Of a stretch of DNA of 64,000 bases, positions 10,472 to 53,881 are shown piece after piece (the stretch's first letter is position 1; each line of letters begins with the position of its first letter). Origin of the DNA: Patescibacteria group bacterium (GTDB taxonomy: Bacteria; Patescibacteriota; Minisyncoccia; Minisyncoccales; Staskawiczbacteraceae); assembly GCA_018829965.1 (NCBI GenBank), contig JAHJTG010000016.1, positions 157,537-221,536 of the forward strand. Direction: 5' to 3'. A program made the position numbers and the translations under genes. The notes under the pieces are model-generated. The model did no database searches, was not told the DNA's origin, and saw only the letters and a list, made by a program, of their open reading frames with translations.

Positions 10472-10476
10472 GGTTT

Positions 10477-28462: not shown

Positions 28463-29383
28463 TTATTTTTTAATTAAATTATGATTTTCAAACCATTCTT
28501 TAGTTTTTCCAACTCCAGTAGCAAAATCTGTCTTAGGCTGCCAATTCAAAAGCTTTTTAGCTAAGTTGATGTCTGCCTGGGTATGGAGAGGGTCACCTAA
28601 CCTTGGGGGCAGATATTGAACCGAACCGCCGATTAATTTGCTTAAATAATTGATCGAATAAGATTTCTTCTGCCCAATATTTATTATTTCTCCTCCTTTT
28701 ATCTTTTTGCTTTCCGCTGCTTTTATATTTGCATCTACTACATCATCTATATAGCAAAATGCCCTAGTCTGTTCCCCATCTCCAAAAATTGTTAATGGCT
28801 TATTCTGAACCCTTAATCTTAAAAATTTTCCCAAAACTAAACTATAATCAGAATCGAAATCAATTCTTGGCCCATAGACATTAAAATATCTTAAACAAAC
28901 TATCGGAACCTTATATAGCCCAACAAATAGTTTTGCAGTTTGCTCTCCAACAAACTTCTGTAGCCCATATGGGCTAAGAGGATTAGGAATCATATTCTCT
29001 TTTAGAGGAAACTTCTTTTGATCCCCATATATAGAAGAAGAGGAGGCGAAAATAATTCTTTTAACCCCTTCATCAATCGCCGCTTTAAAAACATTAATCG
29101 TACCCAAAATATTCACTTGAGATGTACCGACTGGATCCTTAATCGAAATCGGCACTCTCGGAATAGCAGCTAAGTGTAAAACATAGTCAACTCCTTGAAA
29201 GCAGGGCTTGATTTTGTTAAAATCACGAATATCTAATTGATAAAACTCTACCTTAGGATTCAAGTTTTCCTTCTTCCCAGTTGAAAGATTATCAATAACC
29301 ACTACTTGGTGGTTTTGTTTTATTAACTTATCAACGAGATGGCTGCCTATGAATCCAGCTCCGCCAGTAATTAAGTATTTCAT
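28463..29383 (-). CDS. NAD-dependent NDP-sugar epimerase/dehydratase (extended SDR)
   Basis: ITGGAGFIGSHL and the YGLQK (YxxxK) motif; 306 aa. Confidence 0.85.
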   Translation of the reverse strand: MKYLITGGAGFIGSHLVDKLIKQNHQVVVIDNLSTGKKENLNPKVEFYQLDIRDFNKIKPCFQGVDYVLHLAAIPRVPISIKDPVGTSQVNILGTINVFKAAIDEGVKRIIFASSSSIYGDQKKFPLKENMIPNPLSPYGLQKFVGEQTAKLFVGLYKVPIVCLRYFNVYGPRIDFDSDYSLVLGKFLRLRVQNKPLTIFGDGEQTRAFCYIDDVVDANIKAAESKKIKGGEIINIGQKKSYSINYLSKLIGGSVQYLPPRLGDPLHTQADINLAKKLLNWQPKTDFATGVGKTKEWFENHNLIKK

Positions 29384-29397: not shown

Positions 29398-30507
29398 TTA
29401 ATTATATAATGTGGGCACTTGAGATACTTTATAATGTATCGTGTTGTAAAAAGTCCAATGACTTCTCCATTTCTTGCCATGCTTAAGAAAAAAATAAATC
29501 TTTAGAATACTTCGTAAAATAAAAGAGGGGGTTAAAGACGCGATTATAAAAGTGAGAGAAAACATCAAGCCATCTCTAAGTGTTGCTTTTTGAAAAAATC
29601 CTTTTAAAACTCCGAGATAAGACGAATAAAAAAACGTCTTAAAAGCCTTCATTAATATTAAATGCTGGACAATATTCCATCTAAATCCTCTGTCCATTTC
29701 TTTGATTCTTTTGATTGTAGCATCGTTTACATAACCGCTTGACAACAGCAATTTATTCAATCTTTTTTTACACACATAATGTTTCTTGAATCTGTCTTCA
29801 ATGGAAATCTTATAATAAGGCAGCTCTTGAGAAACTATATGTTTATTAAGCGCCAACCCTTTAACATCAGAAAATTTTAAAAACATCAACCGATATAAAA
29901 ATACTTGAGGATAATGGCTTCCGATTGACTTTTCTGCTAATTCCCTTTCTTGCTCTAATATCTTTTTAAAGAAGCTATTTTTAAATATTAAAATACTTAA
30001 AAATACGCTGTCAGGAAAATTTGCCTCGATAATATTCTCTCTATTTATTTCAAAAACCAACGGCTTATCTGGCTCCAGAGAAGTATAATAAACAGTCTTT
30101 TTTCCGGTTTTTTTATCAATAAAATATGCTTCTGATTTAAGAGTGACAAGAGCTGTATTTTCTTTGCAATTTTTCTTAATAAAATTAATCACCTCCTCTA
30201 AACCATTGGGGATGATAGAATCGTCATCTGCAAAAAGCCAAATATAGTCCCCCTCAGACATTTCCATCACTTGGAAAAGATTCCTATCGCCTAAATCTTC
30301 CTTATTTTCATTATATTTTATCAAATCTGGATATTTTTCCTTAAAATTCATTACAACTTCTCGAGTATTATCTGAAGAACCATTATTAGAAACGCATATT
30401 TCAATCCCATCTTTAATTTGAGGTATAATGTAATCCAAAAGATTCTTCAGATAAACTGCTCTATTGTAAGTAGGAATAGCAATACTTAATAAAGGTTTAC
30501 TGCTCAT
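29398..30507 (-). CDS. Glycosyltransferase family 2 with C-terminal membrane segment
   Basis: LSIAIPTYNRAVYLKNLL, NNGSSDNT, FADDDS (DxD), and C-terminal hydrophobic LMFSLTFIIASLTPSFIL. Confidence 0.8.
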   Translation of the reverse strand: MSSKPLLSIAIPTYNRAVYLKNLLDYIIPQIKDGIEICVSNNGSSDNTREVVMNFKEKYPDLIKYNENKEDLGDRNLFQVMEMSEGDYIWLFADDDSIIPNGLEEVINFIKKNCKENTALVTLKSEAYFIDKKTGKKTVYYTSLEPDKPLVFEINRENIIEANFPDSVFLSILIFKNSFFKKILEQERELAEKSIGSHYPQVFLYRLMFLKFSDVKGLALNKHIVSQELPYYKISIEDRFKKHYVCKKRLNKLLLSSGYVNDATIKRIKEMDRGFRWNIVQHLILMKAFKTFFYSSYLGVLKGFFQKATLRDGLMFSLTFIIASLTPSFILRSILKIYFFLKHGKKWRSHWTFYNTIHYKVSQVPTLYN

Positions 30508-31819
30508 AATTTTGGAGAAAGTTTTTCATAATTTTAATCATGTAATTCAACTTATTTCTAGTTATTCCCGGATAAACGCCTATCCAAAAAAGATTATTCA
30601 TTACCAAATCAGTATTTTTTAAGGAACCGAAAACCCTGCACTTTATGTCTTTATAAGCCGGCTGTTTTTTGAGATTTCCGCCAAAAAGCATTCTGGTAGC
30701 GATTTTATTATCTTCCAAATAGTTCACAATTTCGTTCCTAGAAAAAGGAGCACCTTCTTTTAACAGTATCGGAAAGCCAAACCAAGATGGCTGAGAATTT
30801 TTTGTTGCTTGAGGAAAAATTAGATATTTATCGTACTTTTTCAAAAATCCATATAATAGATCAAAGTTTTTCCTTCTTGCTTTAATAAATTGAGGCAGTT
30901 TTTTAAGTTGAGCTACTCCAATCGCCGCCTGCATATCAGTGATTTTAAAATTATAGCCGATATGAGAATAAATATATTTATGGTCATAACCAAATGGTAG
31001 TTTCCCAATTTGCCAAGAAAATCTTTTTTTACAGGTGTTATCCTGACCCGATTCACAGTAGCAATCTCTCCCCCAGTCACGAAAAGAAGCAATAATTTTC
31101 TTTAATTCCCAATTATTAGTTAAAACCGCTCCACCCTCCCCCATTGTAATATGATGAGCAGGAAAAAAACTGCAGGTAGAAATATCTCCAAATGTTCCTG
31201 TGTATTTATTTTTATATTTAGAACCCAAAGCATCGCAATTGTCTTCAATAACCCAGAGATTATGTTTTTTTGCTAATTTTAAAATCTTATCAAGAGCAAC
31301 AGGATTTCCTAATGTGTGAGCAACAAAAATTGCTTTTGTTTTTTTAGAAATTGCTTTTTCAATTTTTCCGACATCTATATTATAGATTCCTAAGCTAACA
31401 TCAACGAAAACTGGAATTAAGTTGTTTTGAATAATTGGGTTTAAAGTAGTTGGAAAACCGCAAGCAGTGGTTATTACTTCGTCTCCGGGTTTTAATCTTC
31501 TCTTTCCGAGTTTTTGCGAAGTTAAAGCAGATATGGCTAAAAGATTAGCTGAAGAGCCGGAATTAACTAAAAGACAGTGCTTTACGCCTAAAAACTCGGC
31601 GAGTTCTTTTTCAAACTGCTGAGCATACCTTCCAGCAGTCAACCAAAAATCAAGCGAGGAGTCAATTAAATTTATCATTTCTTTTTCATTATAAACCCTA
31701 CCAGCATAATTAATGTATGTTTTGCCCGGAATAAATTTCTCCTCTTTTTTTCTTGAATGGCAAATCGCTTTTATTCGGCTAAAAATTTCTTTTTTTAACT
31801 TCAACTGATTATTTGGCAT
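30497..31819 (-). CDS. rfbH: CDP-6-deoxy-4-hexulose 3-dehydrase (E1; RfbH/DdhC/AscC family)
   Basis: 440 aa. LIDSSLDFWLTAGRY, LVNSGSSANLLA and FPAHHITMGEGG (His where aminotransferases have the Schiff-base Lys). Cys cluster RDWGRDCYCESGQDNTCKKRF, consistent with the E1 Fe-S motif. Confidence 0.85.
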   Translation of the reverse strand: MPNNQLKLKKEIFSRIKAICHSRKKEEKFIPGKTYINYAGRVYNEKEMINLIDSSLDFWLTAGRYAQQFEKELAEFLGVKHCLLVNSGSSANLLAISALTSQKLGKRRLKPGDEVITTACGFPTTLNPIIQNNLIPVFVDVSLGIYNIDVGKIEKAISKKTKAIFVAHTLGNPVALDKILKLAKKHNLWVIEDNCDALGSKYKNKYTGTFGDISTCSFFPAHHITMGEGGAVLTNNWELKKIIASFRDWGRDCYCESGQDNTCKKRFSWQIGKLPFGYDHKYIYSHIGYNFKITDMQAAIGVAQLKKLPQFIKARRKNFDLLYGFLKKYDKYLIFPQATKNSQPSWFGFPILLKEGAPFSRNEIVNYLEDNKIATRMLFGGNLKKQPAYKDIKCRVFGSLKNTDLVMNNLFWIGVYPGITRNKLNYMIKIMKNFLQNYEQ

Positions 31820-32936: not shown

Positions 32937-33017
32937 AATTATGAGCGAGGAAGATATGAAAATTTATTTTCATATCGACCGAGTGATTAATTATATAAAT
33001 TACGAAGTAATTTCTAT
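32937..33017 (-). promoter_or_regulatory. Conserved leader element, copy B (abuts ATG of 31824-32936; overlaps stop codon of 33014-34174)
   Basis: Gene-sense sequence: ATAGAAATTACTTCGTAATTTATATAATTAATCACTCGGTCGATATGAAAATAAATTTTCATATCTTCCTCGCTCATAATT, then ATG. Hairpin 1 pairs 32997-33003 with 33007-33013. Hairpin 2 pairs 32953-32962 with 32967-32976. TATATAAT lies at 32990-32997. Confidence 0.75.
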
Positions 33018-34174: not shown

Positions 34175-34177
34175 AAG

Positions 34178-34828
34178 TTAAAATAGTTTCATAACTAGAT
34201 CATATTTATTTATTTCTCCATCATAGCCCTCAGGAGCTTCTACCCATTCCAATCCGTCTTTCCCCTCCACTTGTATCATCGGAATCCTTGAGATCTCCTT
34301 AAAGCCAAGCTTTTCATAAAGCCTTACTGCTCTTTCATTGTCTAAAAAAGTCTTTAGAGAATAACCCTTCAATCCTAAGATAGCTTTCCCCCAATCCATC
34401 ATATTTCTGATTGCATCATTCATAATGCCAGGATAGCCTGATTCTCCGCGTATGATGTTATCTATTTCACATGTTCCATTTTCAAAATCAAATCTGAATA
34501 AACCTACATGGCCGATATATTCGTTGCCAACTTTAATTATAAATAACAGCCTATCAGGAGCGTCTATTAATCTTTCCTTGAACCATTTTGTCGTCCTTTC
34601 AACGGTTACCTCAAATTTGCAGGCAAACCATATTTCATTCTTTTTTCGCCATCCGCCAATTATATTCATTAAATTGGCATCCTTACCGCACTCCGAAGTA
34701 AGAAATATGAGCTTGTAATCAACACCATTAAATTTGCAGTTAATAAAAACTTCTCCAAATGGTAATTGTTTTAATTCTTTAATCTTTGCTAAAACTCTTT
34801 CTTTTGAAAATGCTTTAAGATTAGTCAT
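34178..34828 (-). CDS. GNAT-family N-acetyltransferase
   Basis: FLDNERAVRLYEKLGF acetyl-CoA-binding region. Start placed at the internal Met (MTNLKAF, 34828); the track start at 34864 overlaps the upstream stop by 32 nt. Confidence 0.7.
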   Translation of the reverse strand: MTNLKAFSKERVLAKIKELKQLPFGEVFINCKFNGVDYKLIFLTSECGKDANLMNIIGGWRKKNEIWFACKFEVTVERTTKWFKERLIDAPDRLLFIIKVGNEYIGHVGLFRFDFENGTCEIDNIIRGESGYPGIMNDAIRNMMDWGKAILGLKGYSLKTFLDNERAVRLYEKLGFKEISRIPMIQVEGKDGLEWVEAPEGYDGEINKYDLVMKLF

Positions 34829-34832
34829 ATAT

Positions 34833-35324
34833 TTAAATTGTTTTTTTTTGCTTTTCGTCCTCATATTTATTTACTAAAATTTTTATTACCATCTTTCTAA
34901 TATCTGATTTTTCATTAAAAATACATCCTGGCCTATGTATGTCTGTCGGAAAAAATATTACAAACATTCCTCTATTTATAACAAGAAAATGTTCATTCTC
35001 TATTTTTTTATAAAAAGTACAATCTTTTTCTTCATTGTATTCTTCTAATAATTCGTTTTGGGGATTATTAAAACCTAAACCGATTAGCTCTGTCCCCGAA
35101 ATTACATACTGAATATCTATATATTTTTTATGCACTTCAGCTTTTTTTTCTTTTAATTTCTTTGTCTGATAACTAAACAGATTCATAACGACATCCCTTC
35201 CAAGAGGATATTTTCCGTCTGCAAATTTAGAAAAATCGGTTGTTTTTATATAATTTAAATATTTTAATAAAATTTTCGGGAAAACAGATTTTTTATTAAT
35301 TTCAGATATGTTACCTAAAATCAT
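34833..35324 (-). CDS. YhcH/YjgK/YiaL-family (DUF386) cupin-like protein
   Basis: 163 aa. EVHKKYIDIQYVISGTELIG and IFFPTDIHRPG match the signature I recall for this sialic-acid-associated family. Confidence 0.65.
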   Translation of the reverse strand: MILGNISEINKKSVFPKILLKYLNYIKTTDFSKFADGKYPLGRDVVMNLFSYQTKKLKEKKAEVHKKYIDIQYVISGTELIGLGFNNPQNELLEEYNEEKDCTFYKKIENEHFLVINRGMFVIFFPTDIHRPGCIFNEKSDIRKMVIKILVNKYEDEKQKKTI

Positions 35325-35914
35325 ATTTGTAATAATTTATTTATTTTTAAAAATGTTTCTTTTAATGAGTTTTTATTATTATTCCAAGGCCTTGGAAAAG
35401 TTATCGTTTTTATTCCAAAGGCTTCAACAGATTGTATATTTTCTAAAGAATCGTCAACAAAGAAGTCTACCTTATTATAACCAAGGTATTCTCCTTTGTT
35501 TTTATCATACTGAGGTATAATTATACCTTCCCTATGAGAGGGTATGAAATGAAATGTTCTTATCCACTTCCCATAATTTCTTATAACCCATTCGGCAGAT
35601 ATCGAAGCTGTAGCAAATGGAGTACTAGTCAGAGCAATATGTCTACACCTATCTCCGTATTTTGAAAACCAATCCAAAACTTCCGGAATCGGTTTTAACT
35701 CAAAATATTTACTCCGTCTGAATTCATCCAATGAAGCAAGATATTCTTCCTTTGAAACTCCCAATAGTTCATGCGGGGGATTCTTTAATATATCTTTATA
35801 GTCAACCTTACATTCGGGATGTTCGAGCTTCCATAATTTTTCGAACCATTCCTTCATTAATTCATTCAATACATCATCTATATCCCACGCTATCGTAAAT
35901 GTTTTATTTTTCAT
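35321..35914 (-). CDS. HAD-superfamily phosphatase (NT5C-like)
   Basis: 197 aa. N-terminal FTIAWDIDDVLNEL (DxDxV nucleophile motif) and C-terminal FFVDDS. Confidence 0.6.
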   Translation of the reverse strand: MKNKTFTIAWDIDDVLNELMKEWFEKLWKLEHPECKVDYKDILKNPPHELLGVSKEEYLASLDEFRRSKYFELKPIPEVLDWFSKYGDRCRHIALTSTPFATASISAEWVIRNYGKWIRTFHFIPSHREGIIIPQYDKNKGEYLGYNKVDFFVDDSLENIQSVEAFGIKTITFPRPWNNNKNSLKETFLKINKLLQI

Positions 35915-35915
35915 A

Positions 35916-37562
35916 TTATTTTTCCTTTAATAAACCAGCTTCCCACTTAGGAAGCTTTTTTTGCTCAGGATCGATAAAAACTTCACAGAAGATAGGACCA
36001 TCAAAATCTAATACAGATTTTATTTTATCTAAATCCTTTCCATTTTTTATCGATTCGTATTTTATTCCCCAAGCAGGAGCTAATTTACTCCAATCAGGAA
36101 ATCCGACTCCTGAGCTTTTATCACAGGCAAAAACTTTGTTGAAGAACTTCAAATGGGTGTTTCTTATGGAATAATACCCTCCATTATTGAATAAAAATAT
36201 CTTTATCGGGAGCTTGTGATAAATCACTGTTTGTAGTTCCTGAATATTCATCATAATTGAACCGTCCCCCTCCAAACATATCACCGGCTTCTTATTATTA
36301 GCGATGCAAGCTCCGATTGACATTGGAAGTCCTTTACCCATTTCGCCGAAAGCAGTATTAGTAATCAATCTTTGCCCCTTTTTCAGTTTCAATGCCTGAT
36401 GTGGCGTTTCTGCGACCATGCCGTTTGAAGTAATTACTGAATAATCGCATTTTCCGCTTAAAGTTTCTAAAAACTGATAAGCGTCAACATATTTATTATT
36501 TGCTTCGTAAGAAACAGGCTTTTTCTCAATATCCCATCTTTTCAATTTAATATCCTGTTTTAACGTTCCTTCTAGAAAATCTTTAGCATCAACACAAACA
36601 GGAGTATCAATTTTTAATGTCCTTTTATATAGCTCAGCCTTATCTATATCAACCATTATCTTAACAGCATTTTCAGCAAACTTTTTATACTCAAAAGAAG
36701 TATTCCTGATTTGCATTCTCGTTCCAACGATAAGAAGCAAATCGCAATTATCAAATGCATAGTTTGCAGTTTCTACCCCCGATAATCCCTGTTCCCCTAA
36801 ATAGTACGGATAATCATCATTCACTAAATCAGTTCCGCTCATTGCCGAAACAACATTAATTTTTGTTTTTTTAATAAATTCCCATAGTTCTGGAACTGCG
36901 CCAGCTAACCTAATCCCATTCCCAACTATCATTAAAGGTTTTTTAGCTTTATTTAAAGCTTCTATTATTTCTTTGAAAGGGATATTATATTTCGGTTTTT
37001 CCGGCGCTTCAAAACCAATCAAATTATTTTCGTCAATTTCGGCACATTGGACATCCAAAGGAATCTCAAGCCAGACAGGCCCCGGCTTTCCTGATTTGGC
37101 CAGATAACAAGCTTTCTCAAGGTGATACTTTATTTCATCCGGGTTCTCAACGCAAACTGCATATTTTGTTATCGGCTTTACAACATCCAGCAAATTTATT
37201 TCCTGTGGCTCTCCTAACCTTCTCAATCCGTTTTCTATGTCTTCCCTAGTAAGCTTTATCTCTTTCCTGACCTGCCCAGAAATAATCATCATCGGGATTC
37301 CATCAACCCAAGCAGCAGCAACCCCAGTGATCGTATTCGTCCCTCCAGGACCCGTTGTAACGCTTGCAACGCCGATTCTATTGCTTATCCTTGAATAACC
37401 TTCGGCGGCAAGAGCACAGGACTGCTCATGATGGCAACAATAAGAATCCAGTTGGGACTTCCCGATGGAATCAACTGTATGCATACATCCTCCTCCCGAA
37501 ACAAGAAAAATGCTGTCTGTAATTTTTTCTAAATGTTTTACTAAATAGTCGCTTAATTTCAT
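35916..37562 (-). CDS. Thiamine-diphosphate-dependent enzyme, acetolactate-synthase large-subunit-like (YerE-like candidate)
   Basis: About 548 aa. TGPGGTN, and a ThDP-binding GDGS motif (CLEGDGSIMMNIQELQT...NNGGY). Start placed at the internal Met (MKLSDYLVKHL, 37562); the track start is 37595. Confidence 0.85.
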   Translation of the reverse strand: MKLSDYLVKHLEKITDSIFLVSGGGCMHTVDSIGKSQLDSYCCHHEQSCALAAEGYSRISNRIGVASVTTGPGGTNTITGVAAAWVDGIPMMIISGQVRKEIKLTREDIENGLRRLGEPQEINLLDVVKPITKYAVCVENPDEIKYHLEKACYLAKSGKPGPVWLEIPLDVQCAEIDENNLIGFEAPEKPKYNIPFKEIIEALNKAKKPLMIVGNGIRLAGAVPELWEFIKKTKINVVSAMSGTDLVNDDYPYYLGEQGLSGVETANYAFDNCDLLLIVGTRMQIRNTSFEYKKFAENAVKIMVDIDKAELYKRTLKIDTPVCVDAKDFLEGTLKQDIKLKRWDIEKKPVSYEANNKYVDAYQFLETLSGKCDYSVITSNGMVAETPHQALKLKKGQRLITNTAFGEMGKGLPMSIGACIANNKKPVICLEGDGSIMMNIQELQTVIYHKLPIKIFLFNNGGYYSIRNTHLKFFNKVFACDKSSGVGFPDWSKLAPAWGIKYESIKNGKDLDKIKSVLDFDGPIFCEVFIDPEQKKLPKWEAGLLKEK

Positions 37563-37576
37563 AAAAATATAGCCAA

Positions 37577-39094
37577 TTAATCTATTTTTAACCAATGGGT
37601 TAATTGAGTTTTTCTATTCTTATTTTCCATTATCTTATTATCGTAATAAAAAGAATCGTCCTTGAAATGAGTGGTTGATATTTCTTCAAGAATAGCGCCG
37701 TTTTTTGTTCCAAAACTGTGCTTCGCCCCTCTCTGGATTAAAACAATCTCTCCCGTCTTATATTCTTTTTCTTTTCCATCAAGATTTATACCCAAGTTTC
37801 CATATAGAATCTGAAAACTTTCTTCTTTTTGCTTGTGAAGATGAACGGGATGATTCTGGCCGGGAAATAGAACAATCAGTTTTTTGCAGTATTCCCTGTT
37901 AACGCAATTGAAAATAACCGCTCCGTGTTTATAAAAATTATCTATTCCGTAATGATGAGACACTTCCACCTCTAATTTATCAGGAAGAGCTATTTTTGCC
38001 TCCTCTAAAAACTTCCTGGCTTCAGTTATAATCTTATATACTTTTTCTCTGTTATTTGACGCTTTGACATCGGAAAAAAATATTGAAGCGTTTTTCTTTA
38101 TATCCTTCTCAGAAAAATAATCAATATATTTTGACATATTGTTTGCCAGCAATTGATTATCTATATTCGGCCAGGCAAAAAATGTATTAGATGTGTTTAT
38201 TTTATCGCCTTTTATTATTTGTTTCTTAGCAAAAACTCCTCTTTGGAATTGCCTTAAATCAGCCAACTCTTTTTCAGAAAATCCCGCTCTTTTGTGAAAA
38301 ATACCACAAGTAGTAAATGTTTTTTGAGCTGCTTCTAACCATTGCTCGATTTGCGATGGCGTTGCGGAATAATTATTAAGTTCAATTCCTTCAACTTTTA
38401 TCCCGACATGTTTTTCAAAAATAGTTGCTCCTTTGGCAGTAGCTATTTTGATTGAATCAAAATTATCAGGACTTTCATGGGTGGAATAACCGATTTCCAC
38501 TTCAGGATACCGCTTTTTTAATAAATCGATTTGATTCAGTTGGATATTTTCCGGTAAAGTCGGGTATTCTCCAACACAGTGCATTAAAGAAAGCTTTTTT
38601 CCTCTATGCCCAAGAAAGCTAACTACTTTATCTATATCTTCCAGGGACACTCCGGCAACAGAAACAATAATCGGTTTATCTGTTTTAACGATTTTTTCTA
38701 AAAGTGGCCAATCAGTAAAAGAACAGCTAGCTATTTTAATAAAATCGAAATTAAGCTTCTCAATTAGATCAACTGAGTTTTCATCAAAGGGGGTACAGAT
38801 AGAAATAAATCCCAGTTTATCAATTTCGTCTTTCAGAATTTTAAATTCCTCTTCTTTCAGCTTCGTCTCTGAAAATCGCTTCACGTATTTCAAATCAGTC
38901 CTGTTCTGATAATCCGGATGGATAAAGGTCGGGATATCACGGGATTGCAGCTTGAAAGCAAAATTGAAGGAGAATTTTTTACTTACCTTGTGAATTTCTC
39001 TGATGATTCTCAATCCATGCTCAACCTTACCTTGATGATTGTTGGCCATCTCAAATATGAATAATGGCCTTTGTTGAATGTTTTTTATAGACAT
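37577..39094 (-). CDS. NeuB-family ulosonate synthase with SAF domain fused to a C-terminal cupin (D-lyxose/mannose-isomerase-like)
   Basis: About 505 aa. NeuB motifs FIFEMANNHQG, FKLQS, CTPFDENS, IKIASCS, MHCVGEYPT, GYSTHE and FEKHV. SAF-like FQRGVFAKKQIIKGDKI. The last ~120 aa read FPGQNHPVHLHKQKEESFQILYG...GAKHSF (cupin His/Glu pattern). Start placed at the internal Met (39094); the track start is 39133. Confidence 0.8.
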   Translation of the reverse strand: MSIKNIQQRPLFIFEMANNHQGKVEHGLRIIREIHKVSKKFSFNFAFKLQSRDIPTFIHPDYQNRTDLKYVKRFSETKLKEEEFKILKDEIDKLGFISICTPFDENSVDLIEKLNFDFIKIASCSFTDWPLLEKIVKTDKPIIVSVAGVSLEDIDKVVSFLGHRGKKLSLMHCVGEYPTLPENIQLNQIDLLKKRYPEVEIGYSTHESPDNFDSIKIATAKGATIFEKHVGIKVEGIELNNYSATPSQIEQWLEAAQKTFTTCGIFHKRAGFSEKELADLRQFQRGVFAKKQIIKGDKINTSNTFFAWPNIDNQLLANNMSKYIDYFSEKDIKKNASIFFSDVKASNNREKVYKIITEARKFLEEAKIALPDKLEVEVSHHYGIDNFYKHGAVIFNCVNREYCKKLIVLFPGQNHPVHLHKQKEESFQILYGNLGINLDGKEKEYKTGEIVLIQRGAKHSFGTKNGAILEEISTTHFKDDSFYYDNKIMENKNRKTQLTHWLKID

Positions 39095-39098
39095 ATTA

Positions 39099-40121
39099 TT
39101 ATTCGTAATATTTTTTAAGCCGCTCGGCATCATTAATAGTTATAACATCTTCTGGAAACAATCTATGTTTAACTATTTTGCATTTTGCACATATTTCTCC
39201 TACGTTTTTGATACCATCCAGCATTTTGCACCTAAACCCTTGAAACTCCTTGCCATTCCATATTTCAGATACTGATTGATTGTTGCAATCACCAACAAAA
39301 CCAGGAAATTCATAAGAATAACAAGGGATTACTTTCCCATCGGTATTAATTCTCAGTGTAAAAAATGGCTGTGGGCAAACTAACACATCTGAAGCTGGCA
39401 ACCCGAATTGAGTAACCGATTTGTCTTCACCTTTTAACACTTTCCCGTAATCTACATTCGGCTGGATCGGAACAATATGTTCAATAGCAATGATATCGCA
39501 AATATCCCCAAAAAGCTTATAAAACCTTTCTTCGTCCTCTTTATTTTCTAATGCTTCATCTACGATTTTGATATAAAGTTTAGTGTTCTTTTTCTTATTA
39601 TCAAAAAAATATCGCAGATTCTCAACAAAATTTTCGAAATCTATGTCCACTCCAGACACTTCTTTATACTTTTCTTTTGTCGTCCCCTGCAATGATACGA
39701 TCAATCTTGAAAGCCCAGCTGAAATAAGCGAATCTGACATCTCGGGAGTTAAAAGCGAGGCGTTTGTTAATATCTCTATGTCATTGGTAATATTTTTTAA
39801 AGCGGCGTATTCCACCATATCAGCTATATTTTTATGCAGGAGGGGCTCGCCAATTCCTGAAAAACGCAATATCTTCAATTTATCAGGAAAAAGAACAATG
39901 TCATTTATGCATTTTTTATACAAGCCGAAATCCATAATAATCTTATCTGAAATAAAATTCCGCTCTTCTTTTTTCACCGACATCATGCAATATTTGCAAG
40001 TAAAGTTGCAGGCATGCATTGGATATATTTCTATCATAAAAGGAGTGTTCAAAGGAAGCACTTCTGCAAGCTTCTTTCTTTTTCCTCCCGGCGCTTGTCC
40101 GCTGATATTTTTTGCCTTCAT
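39099..40121 (-). CDS. Radical SAM enzyme with C-terminal SPASM/twitch-type Cys-rich domain
   Basis: 340 aa. YPMHACNFTCKYC (CxxxCxxC). C-terminal Cys pattern VCPQPFF...GKVIPCYSY...GDCNNQ...CAKCK. Confidence 0.85.
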   Translation of the reverse strand: MKAKNISGQAPGGKRKKLAEVLPLNTPFMIEIYPMHACNFTCKYCMMSVKKEERNFISDKIIMDFGLYKKCINDIVLFPDKLKILRFSGIGEPLLHKNIADMVEYAALKNITNDIEILTNASLLTPEMSDSLISAGLSRLIVSLQGTTKEKYKEVSGVDIDFENFVENLRYFFDNKKKNTKLYIKIVDEALENKEDEERFYKLFGDICDIIAIEHIVPIQPNVDYGKVLKGEDKSVTQFGLPASDVLVCPQPFFTLRINTDGKVIPCYSYEFPGFVGDCNNQSVSEIWNGKEFQGFRCKMLDGIKNVGEICAKCKIVKHRLFPEDVITINDAERLKKYYE

Positions 40122-40125: not shown

Positions 40126-41208
40126 TTAACTTATATTAAATGGTTTTTTAGTTTTATCCTTATCAGTGAAAACTTCGGAACAAGGAACTGGAAGTGGCTT
40201 TCCATAAATCTTTTTCACTAAATAGTTATCAATAAAATTCCTATCTTCTGCAATAGTACACGTATCAACATACTCACCAAAATATTTAATATCTAATCCC
40301 CTTTTGATTATGTCTTTCAAGGGCTCTTCAAAAACATTGCCGATGGACGTATGAATATACGGACAAGGCAAAACGTCTCCATATTGGGTCACAGATATCA
40401 TTCCTTTAACTCCTATACAGCCCATATTAATGCCATAGGCCGGAGTTAAATGAGTATAAACATTATATTTCTTTTCAAGGTTGTTTCTCATATAATCTAT
40501 ATCGTCCTTATTAACCAAAATATCAAAATTACCCTCCCAAGAACCAACCGGCTTTGCATAAGTTACAAACACTCCAATCCCTCTTTTATTGAAATATTCA
40601 ATAAATTTGATGAATTCGTCTGAATAAAGCCTCTGTTTTGTAACAACAGTTTGAATAAAAATATTCAAACCTGCCGCTAAAGTCGCGTCAACCGCTTTCA
40701 TTGCCCTTTCGTGCGCACCTTTAGCTTTCCTAAAACTATCGTGTTCTTTAGCATCAAGACTGTCTATGCTTAATTGGACTCTATCAACGCCTATCTCTCT
40801 AAGATGCTTGGCTTTTTTTTCATCTAAAAACCATCCATTAGTATCAACATTAATATAGAATTTTTGAGGGTCAATAGCTTTAACTAATTCATCAAAATCC
40901 GGAAATACTAATGGTTCTCCGCCTGTAATCACAAAGCGCGCCAAACCTATCTCGTCGGCCTGCCGGCTGAGATTTTTTACATCATCCATAGTAAATTGCC
41001 GCTTTTCATTTCTACCTTGAAATTTCTTTACCGAGCAGTGTTGACACTGAAAATTACAAACGTAATTATATTGAAACTGAATAATAGCAATACTTTCTCC
41101 ACGTTTAATCTTTTCATCAAATTTCATAATTTTTTCATAGACATACGGCTTTTCTTCTTTCAAACGATTTCTTTTTTCTGCTTCTAATTTTTGCTGATTT
41201 ATTGGCAT
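40126..41208 (-). CDS. Radical SAM enzyme (MoaA/NirJ/PqqE-like) with twitch/SPASM-like C-terminus
   Basis: 360 aa. QYNYVCNFQCQHCS, ITGGEPLV, and C-terminal GCIGVKGMISVTQYGDVLPCPY...DTC. Confidence 0.85.
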   Translation of the reverse strand: MPINQQKLEAEKRNRLKEEKPYVYEKIMKFDEKIKRGESIAIIQFQYNYVCNFQCQHCSVKKFQGRNEKRQFTMDDVKNLSRQADEIGLARFVITGGEPLVFPDFDELVKAIDPQKFYINVDTNGWFLDEKKAKHLREIGVDRVQLSIDSLDAKEHDSFRKAKGAHERAMKAVDATLAAGLNIFIQTVVTKQRLYSDEFIKFIEYFNKRGIGVFVTYAKPVGSWEGNFDILVNKDDIDYMRNNLEKKYNVYTHLTPAYGINMGCIGVKGMISVTQYGDVLPCPYIHTSIGNVFEEPLKDIIKRGLDIKYFGEYVDTCTIAEDRNFIDNYLVKKIYGKPLPVPCSEVFTDKDKTKKPFNIS

Positions 41209-41230: not shown

Positions 41231-42457
41231 TTATTTATTGCTTAATTTTTGATATTGTTCATATTCTAAAGGCTTACTTGTTTGAATGGACGGCGTTATC
41301 TCGGAATCTCCGAATGACCTTCCATTACAAAAATCACATGCTTCTAAATAATCTTTATTCAAAAGATAATCTCTAACCTTATTCTTCGTCGCCAATATGC
41401 CCTTTTCATCTAATGGCTCCTGGAATAAATCGATGTAATCATTTTTACAATCCGGAACTGCCCTAAGTCTGGCGGCATTGGCGATAAAAGGGCATCTGTA
41501 TAATTTTCCATCTGATATATTAACTGTGTTTTTAGCGCAACATTTTCCAAAAATTTCTTTTTGCTGTTTAGGGTTACGATTATGCCTCTTTATTTTAGAA
41601 CAATCTGTCCAGCCTTGAGCTTTCCGTGAATAAAAGGCGATATTCTTGCTTGATAGTTTTTGAATCAAAGCATCTAAATTTCTTGAAAGCAGACCATAAT
41701 CTGTAATCATAAGCAGTACTTTATTGTTTTTCAAGCATTCTATCTTTTCGTCCGGAGGAACTATTGTTCCATTTACATAAACTATAATCTTCTTTACCTT
41801 AGGCTCATCGATTAATCTTTTTATCACTAAATCAAAGTCTCTATTCATAAACGGATCACCGCCAATAACCCTGAACTCATTAACCTCGTCCATAATACTG
41901 CAAAATGTATCTATAGATTTCATTAATTCTTCGGCGTCGCAATCCTTAGGATTTTTGTAATACTGCGTAAGATTAGAACAATCTCTGCATTTTAAAGAAC
42001 AGCGTTCGGTAATGATAATATCGACGCTTCTTAAGAAAAGCTTATCGGGGGTCAGATAACTGTCGTGGCAGAAAAGACAAGTATCAACCGCATATTGAAC
42101 AAAATCGCTTGGGGCACTGAATTGATATTTAAATATATCAAAGTCTTTTAGCAACAAATTAGACGGATACCATTTGGAGAATCCTAAACTAGATAATTGC
42201 TCAACCACGTCTTTTATATCAGCTGCCGATATTAAGAAAATAGCATCTTGATATTTCTTTTTCAAATCAGAAACAGGGATTACTTCAATATCAGCCTTTT
42301 TATTAATGTTATTATCGCAAAAACACTCGACTTTAATTCCTGCGTCGCAACAAGCTTTTAATATCACTTCGCCAACAATACCGGCTCCGAATATTATTAT
42401 CGGCAATCCTTTATCTTTAATCTCTTTAATGATTTTTTGATTTGAAAAATTTTTCAT
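41231..42457 (-). CDS. Rossmann-like N-terminal domain fused to radical SAM/SPASM-like enzyme
   Basis: 408 aa. IIIFGAGIVGEVILKAC (GxGxxG), ITERCSLKCRDCSN (CxxxCxxC), and C-terminal CCAKNTVNISDGKLYRCPF...CDFCNG. Confidence 0.8.
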   Translation of the reverse strand: MKNFSNQKIIKEIKDKGLPIIIFGAGIVGEVILKACCDAGIKVECFCDNNINKKADIEVIPVSDLKKKYQDAIFLISAADIKDVVEQLSSLGFSKWYPSNLLLKDFDIFKYQFSAPSDFVQYAVDTCLFCHDSYLTPDKLFLRSVDIIITERCSLKCRDCSNLTQYYKNPKDCDAEELMKSIDTFCSIMDEVNEFRVIGGDPFMNRDFDLVIKRLIDEPKVKKIIVYVNGTIVPPDEKIECLKNNKVLLMITDYGLLSRNLDALIQKLSSKNIAFYSRKAQGWTDCSKIKRHNRNPKQQKEIFGKCCAKNTVNISDGKLYRCPFIANAARLRAVPDCKNDYIDLFQEPLDEKGILATKNKVRDYLLNKDYLEACDFCNGRSFGDSEITPSIQTSKPLEYEQYQKLSNK

Positions 42458-42462
42458 TGAAG

Positions 42463-43557
42463 TTATTTAATAATGTCTTCTTTTTTAAGCTTTTTGTATC
42501 TTTTAAAAGCTTTGTACTGACACATCCAGATAATCAGCCGGACAAGCTTTAGCTTCATTAAAACAGGGATTATCTTGCTTTCGCCTTTTGAGGGAGAATA
42601 AAATCGTAGATTATCCCTAAAATTTGAATCATTGATTATTTGACAGATAAACTCATAAGTCTTTTTCTTATTACTGCTATTAATCTGACCACAAATACGG
42701 ACTAATTGAATTATGGCTAAAAAGATATCGGCATGTCCAACTTCTTTTTCTATATTAATGCCAAAACCACAATCTTTAAGGAAGCTTTTTATTCTAATAA
42801 GAGCTTGTCTATATCCGAATAATATTTCGGGATGATTGCCTATTGCCATTGCCGCCGAAGTATAATTATTGAAAACCAAATGATTGTATATCGTTTCCTT
42901 TAAGAAAGACGCCTTTTCTATGTGATTTAGATAGTCGAAATTAAAGGCTACATCTTCAAACGTACGCAAATTATTATCAAAGTGGATATCATTGTTTTTT
43001 ATAATCGATGATTTAAATAATCTTCCCCAAGAATATGCGAATAGCTGGAAACTATTGGGTTTTTTTAAATAACACCTAACATAATCTATAATATCTTTTT
43101 TTGTTAACAATTTGCTTTCTAAAAGAATACGGCCGTGTCCAGAATCAGGATTGTTGTTATCATTAATCTTTCTGAAATCTCCTATTATTATATCTGCTTT
43201 TATTCGACGATAATTTTCTATTAACAAGCTTATGGCATTATTTTCGATGAAATCATCGGAGTCAAGAAAGAATATAAAACTTCCTTTTGAATTTTCTATA
43301 CCTATATTTCTAGCGGCTGCCGGACCATTATTTTCTGTATGTATTACCTTAATTCTTTTGTCATTAAGCACATATTCATCGCAAATCTTTCCGCTATTAT
43401 CAGTTGACCCATCGTCAATAAGTATTATCTCTATTTTTTTATAAGTTTGGCCTATAATGCTTCCCAAACAGCGATCAAGATATCTTTCAACATTATATAC
43501 CGGGATTATAACACTTATCAGGTCGTCGATTAATTTGTCATTATTAGTTTCTTCCAT
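42463..43557 (-). CDS. Glycosyltransferase family 2
   Basis: ISVIIPVYNVERYLDRCLGSIIGQTYKKIEIILIDDGSTDNS and FLDSDD. Confidence 0.85.
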   Translation of the reverse strand: MEETNNDKLIDDLISVIIPVYNVERYLDRCLGSIIGQTYKKIEIILIDDGSTDNSGKICDEYVLNDKRIKVIHTENNGPAAARNIGIENSKGSFIFFLDSDDFIENNAISLLIENYRRIKADIIIGDFRKINDNNNPDSGHGRILLESKLLTKKDIIDYVRCYLKKPNSFQLFAYSWGRLFKSSIIKNNDIHFDNNLRTFEDVAFNFDYLNHIEKASFLKETIYNHLVFNNYTSAAMAIGNHPEILFGYRQALIRIKSFLKDCGFGINIEKEVGHADIFLAIIQLVRICGQINSSNKKKTYEFICQIINDSNFRDNLRFYSPSKGESKIIPVLMKLKLVRLIIWMCQYKAFKRYKKLKKEDIIK

Positions 43558-43561: not shown

Positions 43562-44050
43562 TTATATATATTTTCTATATATTTTTTGGACCTTCAATAA
43601 ATTCGACGGACAAGTATCATGCCACTTAAGATAGCCGGGATCTTTGCTTGATAAGCCTCTGTTTTTCAAGGGAAATCTGCTTGAAAGAAAACACTTATAT
43701 AATAGGTATATAAAATGCCCTCGCGTGTCTTGCTTTGCCATTAACTGGTAAATGGCTATGGGAGTATGGTCAAATTTTATTTTGGCGCCTATTTCCTGCT
43801 TTGCCACTTTTAATATTCTTGTTTCTGCTTTTTCTTTAAATCTGATAATGCCACCAGGCACATGCCATCCTTTCTGGTATTTATCATCTCTCCAAGATAA
43901 AAGAGTTCTGCCCTTTTCGTCTTTTATCAATAAATCAACATTTATCATCGGCGTAATCTTGCTGATAAAAAGAAACACTTCTTCTGGCAATCCGACAGAA
44001 GGATTTTTAATCTTCTTTTCTAAAAACTTTATCGCTTTTCTTATATCCAT
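43562..44050 (-). CDS. Nudix-fold protein with degenerate Nudix box (WcaH/GDP-mannose mannosyl hydrolase-like)
   Basis: 162 aa. GGIIRFKEKAETRILKVAKQEIG aligns to Gx5Ex7REUxEExGU with RE replaced by KV and EE by QE. Confidence 0.45.
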   Translation of the reverse strand: MDIRKAIKFLEKKIKNPSVGLPEEVFLFISKITPMINVDLLIKDEKGRTLLSWRDDKYQKGWHVPGGIIRFKEKAETRILKVAKQEIGAKIKFDHTPIAIYQLMAKQDTRGHFIYLLYKCFLSSRFPLKNRGLSSKDPGYLKWHDTCPSNLLKVQKIYRKYI

Positions 44051-44052: not shown

Positions 44053-45012
44053 TTATAAATTATTCTCACACCAATCAAACGTTTCTTTGATCCCATTTTC
44101 AAAGCTTGTTTTCGGCTCCCAACCCAATCTTTCTTTCGCTTTTGTCCAATCAAGATATTGTTCCGGTATTTCATTTTTGGCGATATTCAATATTTTATAA
44201 TCTATTTTCTTTCCTAAAATTATTTCAGCTTTTTTCACTAAATCTATCACACTGAAAATATTCTTGCTTCCGAAATTGAACGCCTCGCCAAAAACCTTCC
44301 TATTGTCAGCCAACCTTATGCAACCATCTACTATATCTTTTATATACGTATACTCTCTTATCATTTTTCCATCGCTTCTTATTAAAAATTTTTTATTCTT
44401 AATAACTGCCTCTAAAATTCCTGGTATAATTCTAGAAAGATTAAAATCGCCCGGACCAAAGACATTACTGAATCTCGTGATAACAATCGGTAGACCGTAT
44501 GTTGAAAAATATGTCTGGGCTATCAAATCAGCTGATGCTTTTGACGCATTATAAGGATGATCACCCATTAAAGGATATGTTTCTTTATAGGGCAATTTTT
44601 CTGCCTTGCCATAAGCTTTATCTGAAGAAACAACAACAATTAATTCTATGTTTTTCTGTTGCCTACACATCTCTAAAATATTCACGGTACCCATAATATT
44701 AGTTTCAATCGCATCAAACGGATTCTTATATGCTTCCTCAACTAAAGGCTGGGCTGCCAGATGGAAAACTATTTCAGGGTTCTCTTTTTTGAAGATTTCA
44801 GAGATTTTTCTATCCCTTACATCTATTTCATAGAACTTTGCCTTGGGACTGATGCTCTCCTTCCTGCCGGAAGACAAATTATCTACCACAATTACATTGT
44901 GGCTTTTTTGCATCAGTTCGTTGACAAGATTACTTCCGATAAATCCTGCTCCGCCGGTGACTAAAATGTTTTTTAATTTTCCCATATTTTCCATTTGGGA
45001 TCTTTTGTCCAA
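44053..45012 (-). CDS. rfbG: NDP-hexose 4,6-dehydratase-type extended SDR, probable CDP-glucose 4,6-dehydratase
   Basis: VTGGAGFIGSNL, SSDKAYG (the Asp-Lys pair seen in CDP-glucose dehydratases rather than the TDE of RmlB) and YNASKAS (YxxxK). Overlaps and follows the rfbF-like gene. Alternative starts at 44994 or 44985. Confidence 0.6.
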   Translation of the reverse strand: MDKRSQMENMGKLKNILVTGGAGFIGSNLVNELMQKSHNVIVVDNLSSGRKESISPKAKFYEIDVRDRKISEIFKKENPEIVFHLAAQPLVEEAYKNPFDAIETNIMGTVNILEMCRQQKNIELIVVVSSDKAYGKAEKLPYKETYPLMGDHPYNASKASADLIAQTYFSTYGLPIVITRFSNVFGPGDFNLSRIIPGILEAVIKNKKFLIRSDGKMIREYTYIKDIVDGCIRLADNRKVFGEAFNFGSKNIFSVIDLVKKAEIILGKKIDYKILNIAKNEIPEQYLDWTKAKERLGWEPKTSFENGIKETFDWCENNL

Positions 45013-45767
45013 AGATCGTTTAAAAATACAAAGTCTCTATAGGTATCCATCGCGTACCAAAAGCTTTCGTGTTTATACAAAGTTAATTGTTTTTCAGCAA
45101 TTAACCTACTTAAAGCGTCTTCTATCATATCTCCTGGTTTCAGATAATTGAAAAATTCCTTTTTAAAAACCATAAAACCGCCGTTGATATAATCATAGAG
45201 CAGAGGCTTCTGAGCGAATTCTGTGACAAGCTTGTCTCCATCAGTATTGACCAGCCCCCATCTTGATATTGGATGTACCCCTGTGATAGTTCCTATTTTC
45301 CCTTGCTGTTTATGAAACTCAATCAACTTATTTATATCTATATCAGCAATGCCGTCTCCATAAGTGACCATAAATAAGTCCTCGTTAATATATTTCTTTA
45401 ACTTCAAAACTCTTTCGCCATGAGGAGTCTCCAGCCCAGTATCGGCAAAAGTAATGTTAAAATCGTCGTTGGGATTATCAGGGGTATTATTATCAAAAGT
45501 TACAACCTTACCGTCTTTTGTGTTTAAAGCAAGATCAGTATTACAATATTTCTGTCTAAGGAAATGATCTTTTATATCGGTCCCTTTATAGCCGAGGGCT
45601 AAGATAAAATCACGGTAATTATAATGGTTATATATCTTCATGATGTGCCACAAAATTGGCTCACTCCCAACTTTTACCAAAGGTTTTGGTCTAAACTCTG
45701 TTTCTTCTTTTAAACGAGTACCTATTCCCCCGCAAAGAATAATTGTTTTGATTTTTTGATTATCCAT
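44973..45767 (-). CDS. rfbF: Glucose-1-phosphate cytidylyltransferase
   Basis: 264 aa. ILCGGIGTRLKEETEFRPKPLVKVGSEPILWHIMKIY closely matches the RfbF/DdhA N-terminus. Confidence 0.9.
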   Translation of the reverse strand: MDNQKIKTIILCGGIGTRLKEETEFRPKPLVKVGSEPILWHIMKIYNHYNYRDFILALGYKGTDIKDHFLRQKYCNTDLALNTKDGKVVTFDNNTPDNPNDDFNITFADTGLETPHGERVLKLKKYINEDLFMVTYGDGIADIDINKLIEFHKQQGKIGTITGVHPISRWGLVNTDGDKLVTEFAQKPLLYDYINGGFMVFKKEFFNYLKPGDMIEDALSRLIAEKQLTLYKHESFWYAMDTYRDFVFLNDLWTKDPKWKIWEN

Positions 45768-47186: not shown

Positions 47187-47198
47187 TTTTATTCGAAA

Positions 47199-50250: not shown

Positions 50251-50251
50251 T

Positions 50252-53868: not shown

Positions 53869-53881
53869 GGTGAAAATTATT

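Follow-up and report, generated by a model that had tools for sequence, protein, structure and literature searches.

We analyzed a 64,000-nt stretch of contig JAHJTG010000016.1 from a Patescibacteria group bacterium (assembly GCA_018829965.1, positions 157,537 to 221,536; hereafter referred to as the window), focusing on a gene that encodes a fusion of a NeuB-family synthase, an SAF-like domain and a C-terminal cupin (Table 1). Judged from its gene context, the fusion is probably a bifunctional aldose-ketose isomerase and phosphoenolpyruvate (PEP)-dependent synthase, which together with a neighboring HAD-superfamily phosphatase would supply an ulosonic acid as the donor for a thiamine diphosphate (ThDP)-dependent enzyme that builds a long C-4-branched 3,6-dideoxyhexose. 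Three observations carry this reading: how the domains are arranged, that the catalytic residues are conserved, and that the genes are linked. From them we infer which substrates are used, where the phosphatase acts and that the acid serves as donor.

Architecture and catalytic residues of the fusion

The uninterrupted open reading frame (ORF) runs from 37577 to 39133 on the minus strand and encodes 518 amino acids (aa), and a start at 39094 (M14) gives a 505-aa form that is 100% identical to an NCBI protein (P0001) labeled 'N-acetylneuraminate synthase family protein [Patescibacteria group bacterium]'. Pfam coordinates below refer to the 518-aa form, and residue numbers and motif positions to the 505-aa form. 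Pfam detected NeuB (PF03102) at aa 61-277 (E = 1.4e-42, 146 bits vs a cutoff of 22) and Cupin_2 at aa 421-475 (E = 1e-7), together with a weak match to Lyx_isomer (PF07385; aa 395-439, E = 3e-5) that reached 23.7 bits for the whole protein against a cutoff of 20.8, with no single stretch passing alone. The alignment to TIGR03569 (aa 25-350, model positions 3-328 of 329) included the SAF region, and a Pfam SAF domain is precomputed for many homologues of the fusion. The equivalog models for N-acetylneuraminate synthase (TIGR03569) and pseudaminic acid synthase (TIGR03586) both spanned the first 350 aa, yet scored far under their cutoffs (144 bits vs 399.65 and 129 bits vs 340.25).

An AlphaFold2 model based on 57 homologues (mean pLDDT 89.3) revealed a TIM barrel and a small beta domain, followed by a linker helix and a beta-barrel cupin (aa 370-500). 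A Foldseek search of the PDB matched the N-terminal part best to the entry 3g8r (1.6e-43) and then to NeuB and PseI structures (~1e-23); 3g8r was also the closest by sequence (E = 4e-111, ~60% identity over aa 8-347). For the cupin, D-lyxose isomerases were the best matches in fold (2y0o, 9e-11, TM 0.66, root-mean-square deviation 3.0, 166 columns; 7nzo, 4.8e-9; also 3kmh/3mpb and 7nzo-q) and in a phmmer comparison with PDB sequences (2y0o, 3.9e-9; 7nzo, 8.6e-6). The metal-binding motif FPGQNHPVHLHKQKEESFQILYG...GAKHSF was located at aa 410-432 and 456-461. A sequence-only reading of the window had described the protein as a NeuB-family synthase with an SAF-like segment and a cupin resembling D-lyxose/mannose isomerases, and had proposed structure prediction and Foldseek of the C-terminal region as a check. 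Given the Pfam, TIGR03569, AlphaFold2 and Foldseek results, that description is correct: the region adopts a cupin fold in the model, with metal ligands present.

We further compared both domains with characterized enzymes, using an alignment of 57 sequences to assess residue conservation. The synthase part shares with NeuB, PseI and LegI enzymes (Neisseria meningitidis NeuB, 1xuu; Campylobacter jejuni PseI, 8h2c) the TIM barrel and SAF domain, the metal histidines, the PEP lysines and serines, and the catalytic glutamates, whereas it is only ~22-24% identical to them, carries an added cupin and has no linkage to a cytidine monophosphate (CMP)-sugar synthetase. At the positions of the N. meningitidis NeuB metal histidines H215 and H236, the fusion has H206 and H229; E15 and E227 match catalytic E25 and E234, K120, S123, S145 and S204 match PEP-binding K129, S132, S154 and S213, and T101 and Y177 match T110 and Y186. 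All of these residues of the fusion are invariant or nearly so. NeuB K53 and Q55 most plausibly pair with the invariant K48 and Q50, a correspondence that comes from manual realignment of the K-x-Q strand rather than from the phmmer alignment. In contrast, the positions that recognize N-acetylmannosamine are replaced: Arg314 of the SAF domain, which binds the N-acyl sugar, is W308 here (31 sequences of the family have I, 22 have W and 4 have F), Glu134 is Ser and Asn184 is Gly. The substrate sugar of the synthase is not an N-acyl-mannosamine.

D-lyxose/D-mannose isomerases (Bacillus subtilis YdaE, 2y0o; Thermofilum TsLI, 7nzo; Escherichia coli O157 Z5688, 3kmh) gave the best fold and sequence matches to aa 345-505. 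The cupin differs from them in its ~25% identity, in the deletion of six residues between the HxH and KxE motifs, and in three extra invariant basic residues (K404, R494 and K495); it is also nearly always fused to a synthase, whereas catabolic D-lyxose isomerases stand alone. TsLI residues K62, H75, H77, K86, E88, H143 and E156 correspond to K405, H418, H420, K423, E425, H459 and E471, which are invariant or nearly so; they comprise the Mn ligands (H, H, E, H) and, with D163, the residues found essential by mutation (K86, E156, D163) (PMC8378251). One cupin position is uncertain: the residue aligned with D163 is S481, next to the invariant D480. With this proviso, the pattern of a metal-binding cupin held up in its metal and catalytic counterparts, as did the earlier description of a divergent second NeuB-family synthase in its intact metal and PEP residues. 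Because the metal, PEP-binding and catalytic residues are conserved, both domains look catalytically competent in sequence comparison.

In a scan of one genome per species, full-length relatives were found in at least 554 species genomes from more than 20 phyla, archaea included. Bacterial hosts belonged to Patescibacteria, Omnitrophota, Nitrospirota, Desulfobacterota, Chloroflexota, Bacteroidota, Planctomycetota, Verrucomicrobiota, Acidobacteriota, Bacillota, Proteobacteria and Elusimicrobia, and archaeal hosts to Methanoperedens, Nanoarchaeia and Micrarchaeota. The best 120 protein matches (60-81% identity) all combined NeuB with Cupin_2 and measured 490-517 aa, except one of 457 aa. Searching 1.84 billion cluster representatives with the cupin alone returned 121 matches at E <= 1e-30, most of ~490-515 aa with the domain at ~340-505; among the short cupin-only proteins (160-190 aa), some were Met-initiated and possibly genuine split genes, and others were fragments. 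An assembly or frameshift artefact, which the earlier account had named as an objection when calling for a survey of the fusion's spread, is therefore ruled out, since the ORF is continuous across at least 554 genomes and the fusion recurs in every one of the 120 best protein matches.

The entry 3g8r, from Chromobacterium violaceum, belongs to the same subfamily, and it might pass for an unfused relative. This is wrong: the construct comprises the N-terminal 350 aa of a 495-aa protein (P0121), which in nature is a NeuB-SAF-Cupin_2 fusion. The database name of this structural-genomics entry, 'probable spore coat polysaccharide biosynthesis protein E', is misleading, and to our knowledge no function has been published for it. 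A cupin-ThDP fusion protein (P0411) was likewise rejected as Rosetta-stone evidence. On its contig (L089, 3474-11351), rfbH, the fusion, the ThDP gene and the radical SAM gene are each broken into two or three pieces, as in an error-prone assembly or a decaying cassette, and these split genes mark P0411 as a spurious database protein.

A conserved cassette with a probable ThDP-dependent carboligase

The gene context was sampled in 86 loci, comprising 80 species genomes and loci around individual proteins; a tblastn survey covered 84 loci and ORF clustering 85. A ThDP gene lay within 10 kb of the fusion in 74 of the 86 loci, and since 8 of the 12 exceptions had less than 1.4 kb of downstream sequence, it was present in 74 of 78 informative loci. 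This most constant partner, which in the window lies between the synthase and HAD genes (35916-37595), had been passed over in the sequence-only reading, which also drew no link to the genes for a cytidine diphosphate (CDP)-3,6-dideoxyhexose. The usual gene order was rfbF, rfbG, rfbH, fusion, HAD and ThDP, with rfbH directly upstream of the fusion in most loci other than the window and HAD beginning 0-100 nt past it, and the order rfbH-fusion-HAD-ThDP held across more than 20 phyla. Unbiased ORF clustering recovered the ThDP enzyme (74 loci), a short-chain dehydrogenase/reductase (SDR; 66), a 200-aa HAD protein (54), RfbF (51), RfbH (49), a radical SAM/SPASM protein (38), a sugar C-methyltransferase (35) and a NUDIX hydrolase (31). 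By tblastn, an RfbF homologue was found in 54 loci and an RfbG-like protein in 64, and the radical SAM/SPASM protein encoded at 40126..41208 had homologues of 46-83% identity in 44, C. violaceum and Azoarcus included. Neighbor clustering revealed no aldolase family conserved next to the fusion, and a homologue of CMP-ulosonate synthetase (CTP_transf_3) occurred within 10 kb in only 1 of the 86 loci.

Among PDB entries, through which the ThDP enzyme was compared with JanthE and PpYerE, it matched JanthE (8rph, 1.8e-101), PpYerE (5ahk, 6.5e-68) and then acetohydroxyacid synthases (AHAS; ~1e-62). It carries the ThDP motif GDG...NN, which varies to SDG in C. violaceum (L085, 11491-13320) and to CDG in JanthE.

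The 200-aa HAD gene stood directly 3' of the fusion in 54-56 of ~85 loci; among loci without it, a Cof-type HAD directly followed the fusion in 5 and a HAD_2 protein was present in 4. In the family alignment (A2), D11, D13, K140 and D155 were invariant and T96 nearly so, and the DxD, T, K and DD motifs were kept. Similarity to NT5C was weak and confined to 16 of 39 members, and the family profile found no PDB relative at E < 0.1. Homology to KdsC or to the phosphatase acting on the 9-phosphate (9-P) of 2-keto-3-deoxynonulosonic acid (Kdn) (8KDO) is thus unsupported. One distant relative, P0376 (723 aa), shares 42% identity with the window protein and joins NeuB, cupin and HAD_2 in a triple fusion. 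In its locus (L088, 1072-3974), the fusion gene overlaps the stop of a CTP_transf_3 gene just before it and is flanked by GFO/IDH/MocA oxidoreductase genes. Because three HAD types share one slot and P0376 has the phosphatase built in, the phosphatase step looks integral to the module; and because P0376 directly follows a CTP_transf_3 gene, the module product would be a free ulosonic acid. In the P0376 branch this product appears to be CMP-activated, in a true CMP-ulosonic-acid pathway.

In C. violaceum (L085), the fusion gene (10001-11488) has rfbF-rfbG-rfbH upstream and ThDP, C-methyltransferase, NUDIX, radical SAM and SDR genes downstream, which places the natural counterpart of 3g8r in an rfbF-rfbG-rfbH-fusion-ThDP cassette, one that carries a C-methyltransferase gene and no HAD gene. 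Azoarcus sp. KH32C (L086) has the same arrangement with a flagellin gene adjoining. The cassette stands beside flagellin genes both there (L086, 2806-4401) and in a metagenome-assembled genome of Nitrospirae (L002, 1-1107, with FliW and CsrA), and the branched sugar may glycosylate flagellin in some hosts.

These cassettes resemble known pathways for acyl-branched sugars. The scheme proposed by Steitz et al. (2022) starts from an alpha-keto acid, which loses CO2 on a YerE-like ThDP enzyme; the enzyme joins the remainder to C-4 of CDP-4-keto-3,6-dideoxy-D-glucose, and a reductase then acts (PMC9306805). The donors proposed for erwiniose, caryophyllose and gastriose are hydroxylated C5-C8 2-keto-3-deoxy acids made by a pyruvate aldolase of the same cluster, and ErwE, MMAR_2332 and MyGE accept hydroxylated alpha-keto acids of C4-C8 in vitro (PMC9306805). 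Like the yersiniose (YerE), erwiniose (ErwE/ErwI/ErwJ), caryophyllose (MMAR_2331/2332) and gastriose (MyGE/MygI) pathways, the fusion cassettes bring genes for CDP-4-keto-3,6-dideoxyglucose together with a ThDP carboligase, an SDR and an enzyme that would form a keto acid. The difference lies in the last of these: the known systems form the keto acid with a BphI- or HpcH-type pyruvate aldolase, whereas a PEP-dependent synthase-isomerase fusion and a phosphatase stand here, along with additional radical-SAM and NUDIX partners. The gastriose branch has been proposed to derive from a polyhydroxylated C8 2-keto-3-deoxy acid (PMC9306805). This is the class that we would expect of a NeuB-type enzyme acting on a pentose.

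The locus of JanthE itself offers the closest comparison. JanthE is a characterized YerE-like enzyme that couples alpha-keto acids to ketones, and its physiological substrates have been described as unknown (PMC12188165). In Janthinobacterium sp. HH01 (L087, 6805-15782), we found rfbF-rfbG-rfbH-JanthE-SDR followed by genes for a BphJ-like acetaldehyde dehydrogenase, a BphI-like 4-hydroxy-2-oxovalerate aldolase, an SDR and a glycosyltransferase. The frame is that of the fusion cassettes, with the aldolase pair standing where the fusion and HAD genes stand. The place of JanthE in an erwiniose-type cassette with genes of the BphJ and BphI kind points to 4-hydroxy-2-oxovalerate as its probable natural donor and to CDP-4-keto-3,6-dideoxyglucose as its probable acceptor. 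The simplest explanation of the fusion cassettes is a module swap, in which the fusion and phosphatase replace the aldolase as donor source; the fit of the NeuB-type product class and the JanthE-type frame of the cassette both suggest this role in keto-acid supply.

Proposed pathway and competing explanations

In the pathway that we propose, the Mn-dependent cupin would turn a ketose into an aldose of manno or lyxo configuration; the most economical starting sugar would be a ketose phosphate of central metabolism, for example fructose-6-P or xylulose-5-P. The NeuB domain would condense the aldose with PEP, and the HAD enzyme would strip the phosphate before or after condensation. The output of the module would be a free polyhydroxylated 3-deoxy-2-ulosonic acid of C8 or C9, resembling 3-deoxy-D-manno-octulosonic acid (Kdo) or Kdn. 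Left without CMP activation in the window and in most fusion-bearing genomes, this acid would serve the ThDP carboligase as alpha-keto-acid donor. The ThDP enzyme would decarboxylate it and add a C7/C8 acyl-anion equivalent to C-4 of CDP-4-keto-3,6-dideoxy-D-glucose, the RfbF/RfbG/RfbH product, yielding a long-chain C-4-branched 3,6-dideoxyhexose of the gastriose or caryophyllose kind. The new alpha-hydroxy-ketone would then be reduced or, in the window, perhaps transaminated and acetylated by the DegT aminotransferase, class-I aminotransferase and GNAT proteins (31824-34864). Reductase, aminotransferase, acetyltransferase, radical-SAM, methyltransferase and NUDIX partners may tailor or edit the sugar before surface-glycan assembly, and the NanQ-like anomerase may speed opening of the pyranose ring so that the 2-keto form reaches the ThDP enzyme.

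The logic of ketose-phosphate isomerase, PEP synthase and HAD phosphatase leading to a free 3-deoxy-ulosonic acid is established for KdsD-KdsA-KdsC and for the Kdn-9-P synthase and phosphatase of Bacteroides thetaiotaomicron, to which the present module is analogous. It differs from both in using a cupin isomerase rather than an SIS domain, in a HAD enzyme that is not of KdsC type, and in a product that apparently goes to a ThDP enzyme, not to a CMP-synthetase. We put forward more tentatively that the fusion and phosphatase are a non-homologous analogue of KdsD-KdsA-KdsC, whose product donates its carbon chain to a CDP-ketosugar and thereby gives 13-14-carbon monosaccharides with a polyhydroxy-heptyl or -octyl branch in a widespread pathway (at least 554 species, more than 20 phyla). 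Its hosts would include bacteria of the candidate phyla radiation, DPANN archaea and Methanoperedens.

Several points weigh against the proposed donor role. The sugar condensed with PEP could be a pentose or a hexose, phosphorylated or free. D-lyxose isomerases take unphosphorylated sugars, whereas the HAD partner suggests a phosphorylated intermediate, and ulosonic acids, being mostly cyclic hemiketals, are poor ThDP substrates. We know of no natural C8-branched sugar. The ThDP enzyme of the window is ~35% identical to JanthE, and for the C. violaceum enzyme AHAS scored above PpYerE, so that the label 'YerE-like' holds only loosely. The cassettes showed no E3 (RfbI) reductase, the ThDP gene was missing from four informative loci, and the C. 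violaceum and Azoarcus cassettes contained no HAD gene. The largest branch described so far is the C7 branch of gastriose (PMC9306805).

The NUDIX gene raises a different source for the aldose. The enzyme, in the manner of PseG or LegG, would free a deoxyhexose from the CDP-hexose branch for the cupin to isomerize and the NeuB domain to extend to a deoxy-nonulosonic acid; this acid would again be the ThDP donor, with deoxy or methyl side-chain termini as in caryophyllose and aurantose. NeuB-family pathways to Leg and Pse do start from sugars released from nucleoside diphosphate (NDP)-sugars, and a weakly GDP-mannose-mannosyl-hydrolase-like gene accompanied the fusion in 36 of the 84 loci by tblastn and in C. 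violaceum and Azoarcus (L085, L086), the two betaproteobacterial cassettes without a HAD gene, and was absent from the aldolase-type cassette of JanthE. We nevertheless consider this origin unlikely: the gene is present in under half of the loci and its similarity is weak (37.9 bits vs a cutoff of 146), whereas the HAD gene is commoner and even fused to the synthase in P0376, which argues for a sugar-phosphate precursor.

Improbable in the window is the fate implied by the sequence-only reading, namely that the fusion and HAD enzyme make a Kdn-like nonulosonic or octulosonic acid, which would share the one cytidylyltransferase present, that of the Pse-like cluster, for its CMP activation and would then be transferred as a residue resembling sialic acid. 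The isomerase-synthase-phosphatase logic of that account is sound, supported by the HAD linkage, by the other HAD types in at least 9 loci and by the P0376 fusion, and the window does contain one CMP-synthetase (52446-53216) and a NanQ-like anomerase. The CMP-activated fate fares worse, as a CMP-synthetase lay within 10 kb in 1 of 86 loci compared with a ThDP enzyme in 74, and the near-obligate linkage to rfbH and ThDP genes would be left unexplained. Likewise, the likeness to the Kdn-9-P synthase and phosphatase extends to the pathway logic and not to the type of HAD enzyme. The window CMP-synthetase lies 13 kb away, overlapping the gene of a canonical nonulosonic acid synthase (51388-52449; NeuB 286 bits, plus SAF), and it is the only one in the window. 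The canonical synthase thus has its own CMP-synthetase, in agreement with the earlier claim that the fusion makes a product different from the Pse-like acid. That account had also remarked that only one cytidylyltransferase was visible for two synthases; the count was right, and the puzzle vanishes because CMP-synthetases are so rare near fusions. A Kdn-like fate with CMP activation may still apply to the distant P0376 branch, which is 42% identical and has its gene immediately behind one for CTP_transf_3.

Two further possibilities fit the data less well than donor supply by the fusion and phosphatase. The ThDP enzyme could act upstream, with carboligation building an unusual ketose that the cupin isomerizes and NeuB extends with PEP; the rare ulosonic acid so formed would be activated by the product of a gene outside the cassette. 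ThDP carboligases can form ketoses, as in transketolase- and DXS-type reactions, and the tight ThDP-fusion linkage fits either order; yet this sequence of steps is very unlikely, as it leaves the equally conserved rfbF, rfbG and rfbH unexplained, no activating enzyme was conserved nearby in the neighbor clustering, and the JanthE cassette, of the same frame, has an aldolase making a keto-acid donor. Moreover, the closest characterized relatives of the ThDP enzyme, namely JanthE, YerE and ErwE, place acyl groups on ketones or CDP-ketosugars (PMC9306805, PMC12188165). Finally, there is very little to recommend the idea that the cupin acts on a CDP-sugar as an RmlC-like epimerase or FdtA-like ketoisomerase and is fused to the synthase only for co-expression: such cupin epimerases and 3,4-ketoisomerases are common in deoxysugar clusters and the Pfam Lyx_isomer match is marginal, but the best sequence and fold matches are D-lyxose isomerases, the synthase fusion is kept in nearly all members, and the Mn set H-x-H...E...H and the counterparts of the essential K86 and E156 are invariant, as is D480 next to the position of D163 (PMC8378251).

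Genomic surroundings and implications

The features of the cassette in the window are listed in Table 1. The NanQ-like gene had no homologue in the other surveyed loci (84) and is specific to the window. It lies with GNAT and class-I aminotransferase genes (methionine/aspartate type) in the segment 33014-35324, between the HAD gene and a sugar aminotransferase gene; the tblastn survey of these genes returned one weak match, an aminotransferase in L028 with 23% identity on the opposite strand. As class-I aminotransferases act on alpha-keto acids, this enzyme could draw off the ulosonic acid or provide a different donor.

Table 1. Cassette genes in the window and domains of the fusion protein, with the evidence for each assignment
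Feature	Positions	Strand	Evidence and remarks
SDR epimerase/reductase, candidate YerF-like side-chain ketoreductase (putative role)	28463..29383	-	SDR family in 66/85 loci
RfbH/E1, CDP-6-deoxy-4-keto-glucose 3-dehydrase	30497..31819	-	NF011936 734.7 bits vs cutoff 423
YhcH/NanQ-like (DUF386), N-acetylneuraminate-anomerase-like	34833..35324	-	PF04074 1.7e-44; NF040884 138.7 bits vs cutoff 160
HAD-superfamily phosphatase (predicted), 197 aa, distantly NT5C-like	35321..35914	-	NT5C 27 bits
ThDP-dependent enzyme, JanthE/YerE-like carboligase (predicted)	35916..37595	-	TPP_enzyme_N/M/C; likely true start is the ATG near 37562
NeuB-SAF-cupin fusion protein, 505 aa	37577..39094	-	Pfam, identical NCBI protein, AlphaFold2 model; ORF extendable to 39133
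D-lyxose-isomerase-like cupin domain of the fusion, aa 370-505	37580..37987	-	Cupin_2, Lyx_isomer, 2y0o/7nzo by sequence, 2y0o by fold
SAF/antifreeze-like small beta domain of the fusion, aa 285-347	38054..38242	-	TIGR03569 and 3g8r alignments
NeuB-type TIM barrel of the fusion, aa 10-265, PEP-dependent condensing domain (predicted)	38300..39067	-	Pfam NeuB; 3g8r by sequence and fold
Radical SAM/SPASM protein, accessory in a minority of cassettes	39099..40121	-	16/84 loci
Radical SAM/SPASM protein, conserved cassette accessory	40126..41208	-	Pfam
Radical SAM protein (41231-42457) and GT2 glycosyltransferase (42463-43557), travelling together	41231..43557	-	12-13/84 loci
NUDIX hydrolase, weakly GDP-mannose mannosyl-hydrolase-like, conserved accessory	43562..44050	-	37.9 bits vs cutoff 146
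NDP-hexose 4,6-dehydratase (RfbG-like)	44053..45012	-	TIGR01181 203 bits, TIGR02622 198 bits
Glucose-1-phosphate cytidylyltransferase-like (RfbF-like)	44973..45767	-	TIGR02623 best match, 239.5 bits, under cutoff 300

The cassette is part of a single glycan-biosynthesis island (~1.5-58 kb) with at least 8 methyltransferase and at least 7 radical SAM genes; all listed ORFs of at least 200 aa in the window (1-64000) lie on the minus strand, and its GC skew is negative throughout. The canonical nonulosonic-acid cluster (51388-58335) comprises NeuB with SAF, CMP-sugar synthetase, methyltransferase, DegT aminotransferase, SDR and PseB-like dehydratase (57328-58335) genes, with a B12-binding radical SAM gene (55913-57334) inside it; downstream on the coding strand (48801-51384), it is followed by WbqC and PIG-L deacetylase genes and by genes for a methyltransferase and a hexapeptide acyltransferase. 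ABC-transporter-dependent glycan export is represented in this Patescibacteria genome by an ABC-2 permease and a Wzt-like ABC ATPase, the latter carrying a weakly matched carbohydrate-binding domain, Wzt_C (45791-48017). A heptose-like module (7455-13975) contains a bifunctional cytidylyltransferase-like/HAD protein, a PfkB kinase and a GT9 heptosyltransferase, followed by two B12-binding radical SAM proteins (486 and 655 aa).

Searches of the accessible literature for NeuB in combination with a cupin, lyxose isomerase, acetolactate synthase or CDP-glucose, and for YerE in combination with a sialic acid synthase, returned no account of the fusion or the cassette; the cluster mining of Krug et al. 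(2024) may already include it. If the proposed pathway is true, a family labeled 'N-acetylneuraminate synthase family protein' makes no sialic-acid-like sugars in most genomes, and surveys that take NeuB homologues as a sign of nonulosonic acids over-call them. The fusion and phosphatase would then represent a fourth donor-supply route for ThDP sugar-branching enzymes and would extend the donor range of YerE/JanthE-type enzymes to ulosonic acids. The orphan structure 3g8r would gain a testable function, with C. violaceum and Azoarcus sp. KH32C as cultivable hosts, and a one-protein route from ketose to ulosonic acid, together with ThDP carboligases that take polyhydroxylated keto acids, would be of interest for biocatalysis. 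An undescribed class of very long-branched deoxysugars would thus be predicted on the surfaces of many uncultivated lineages.

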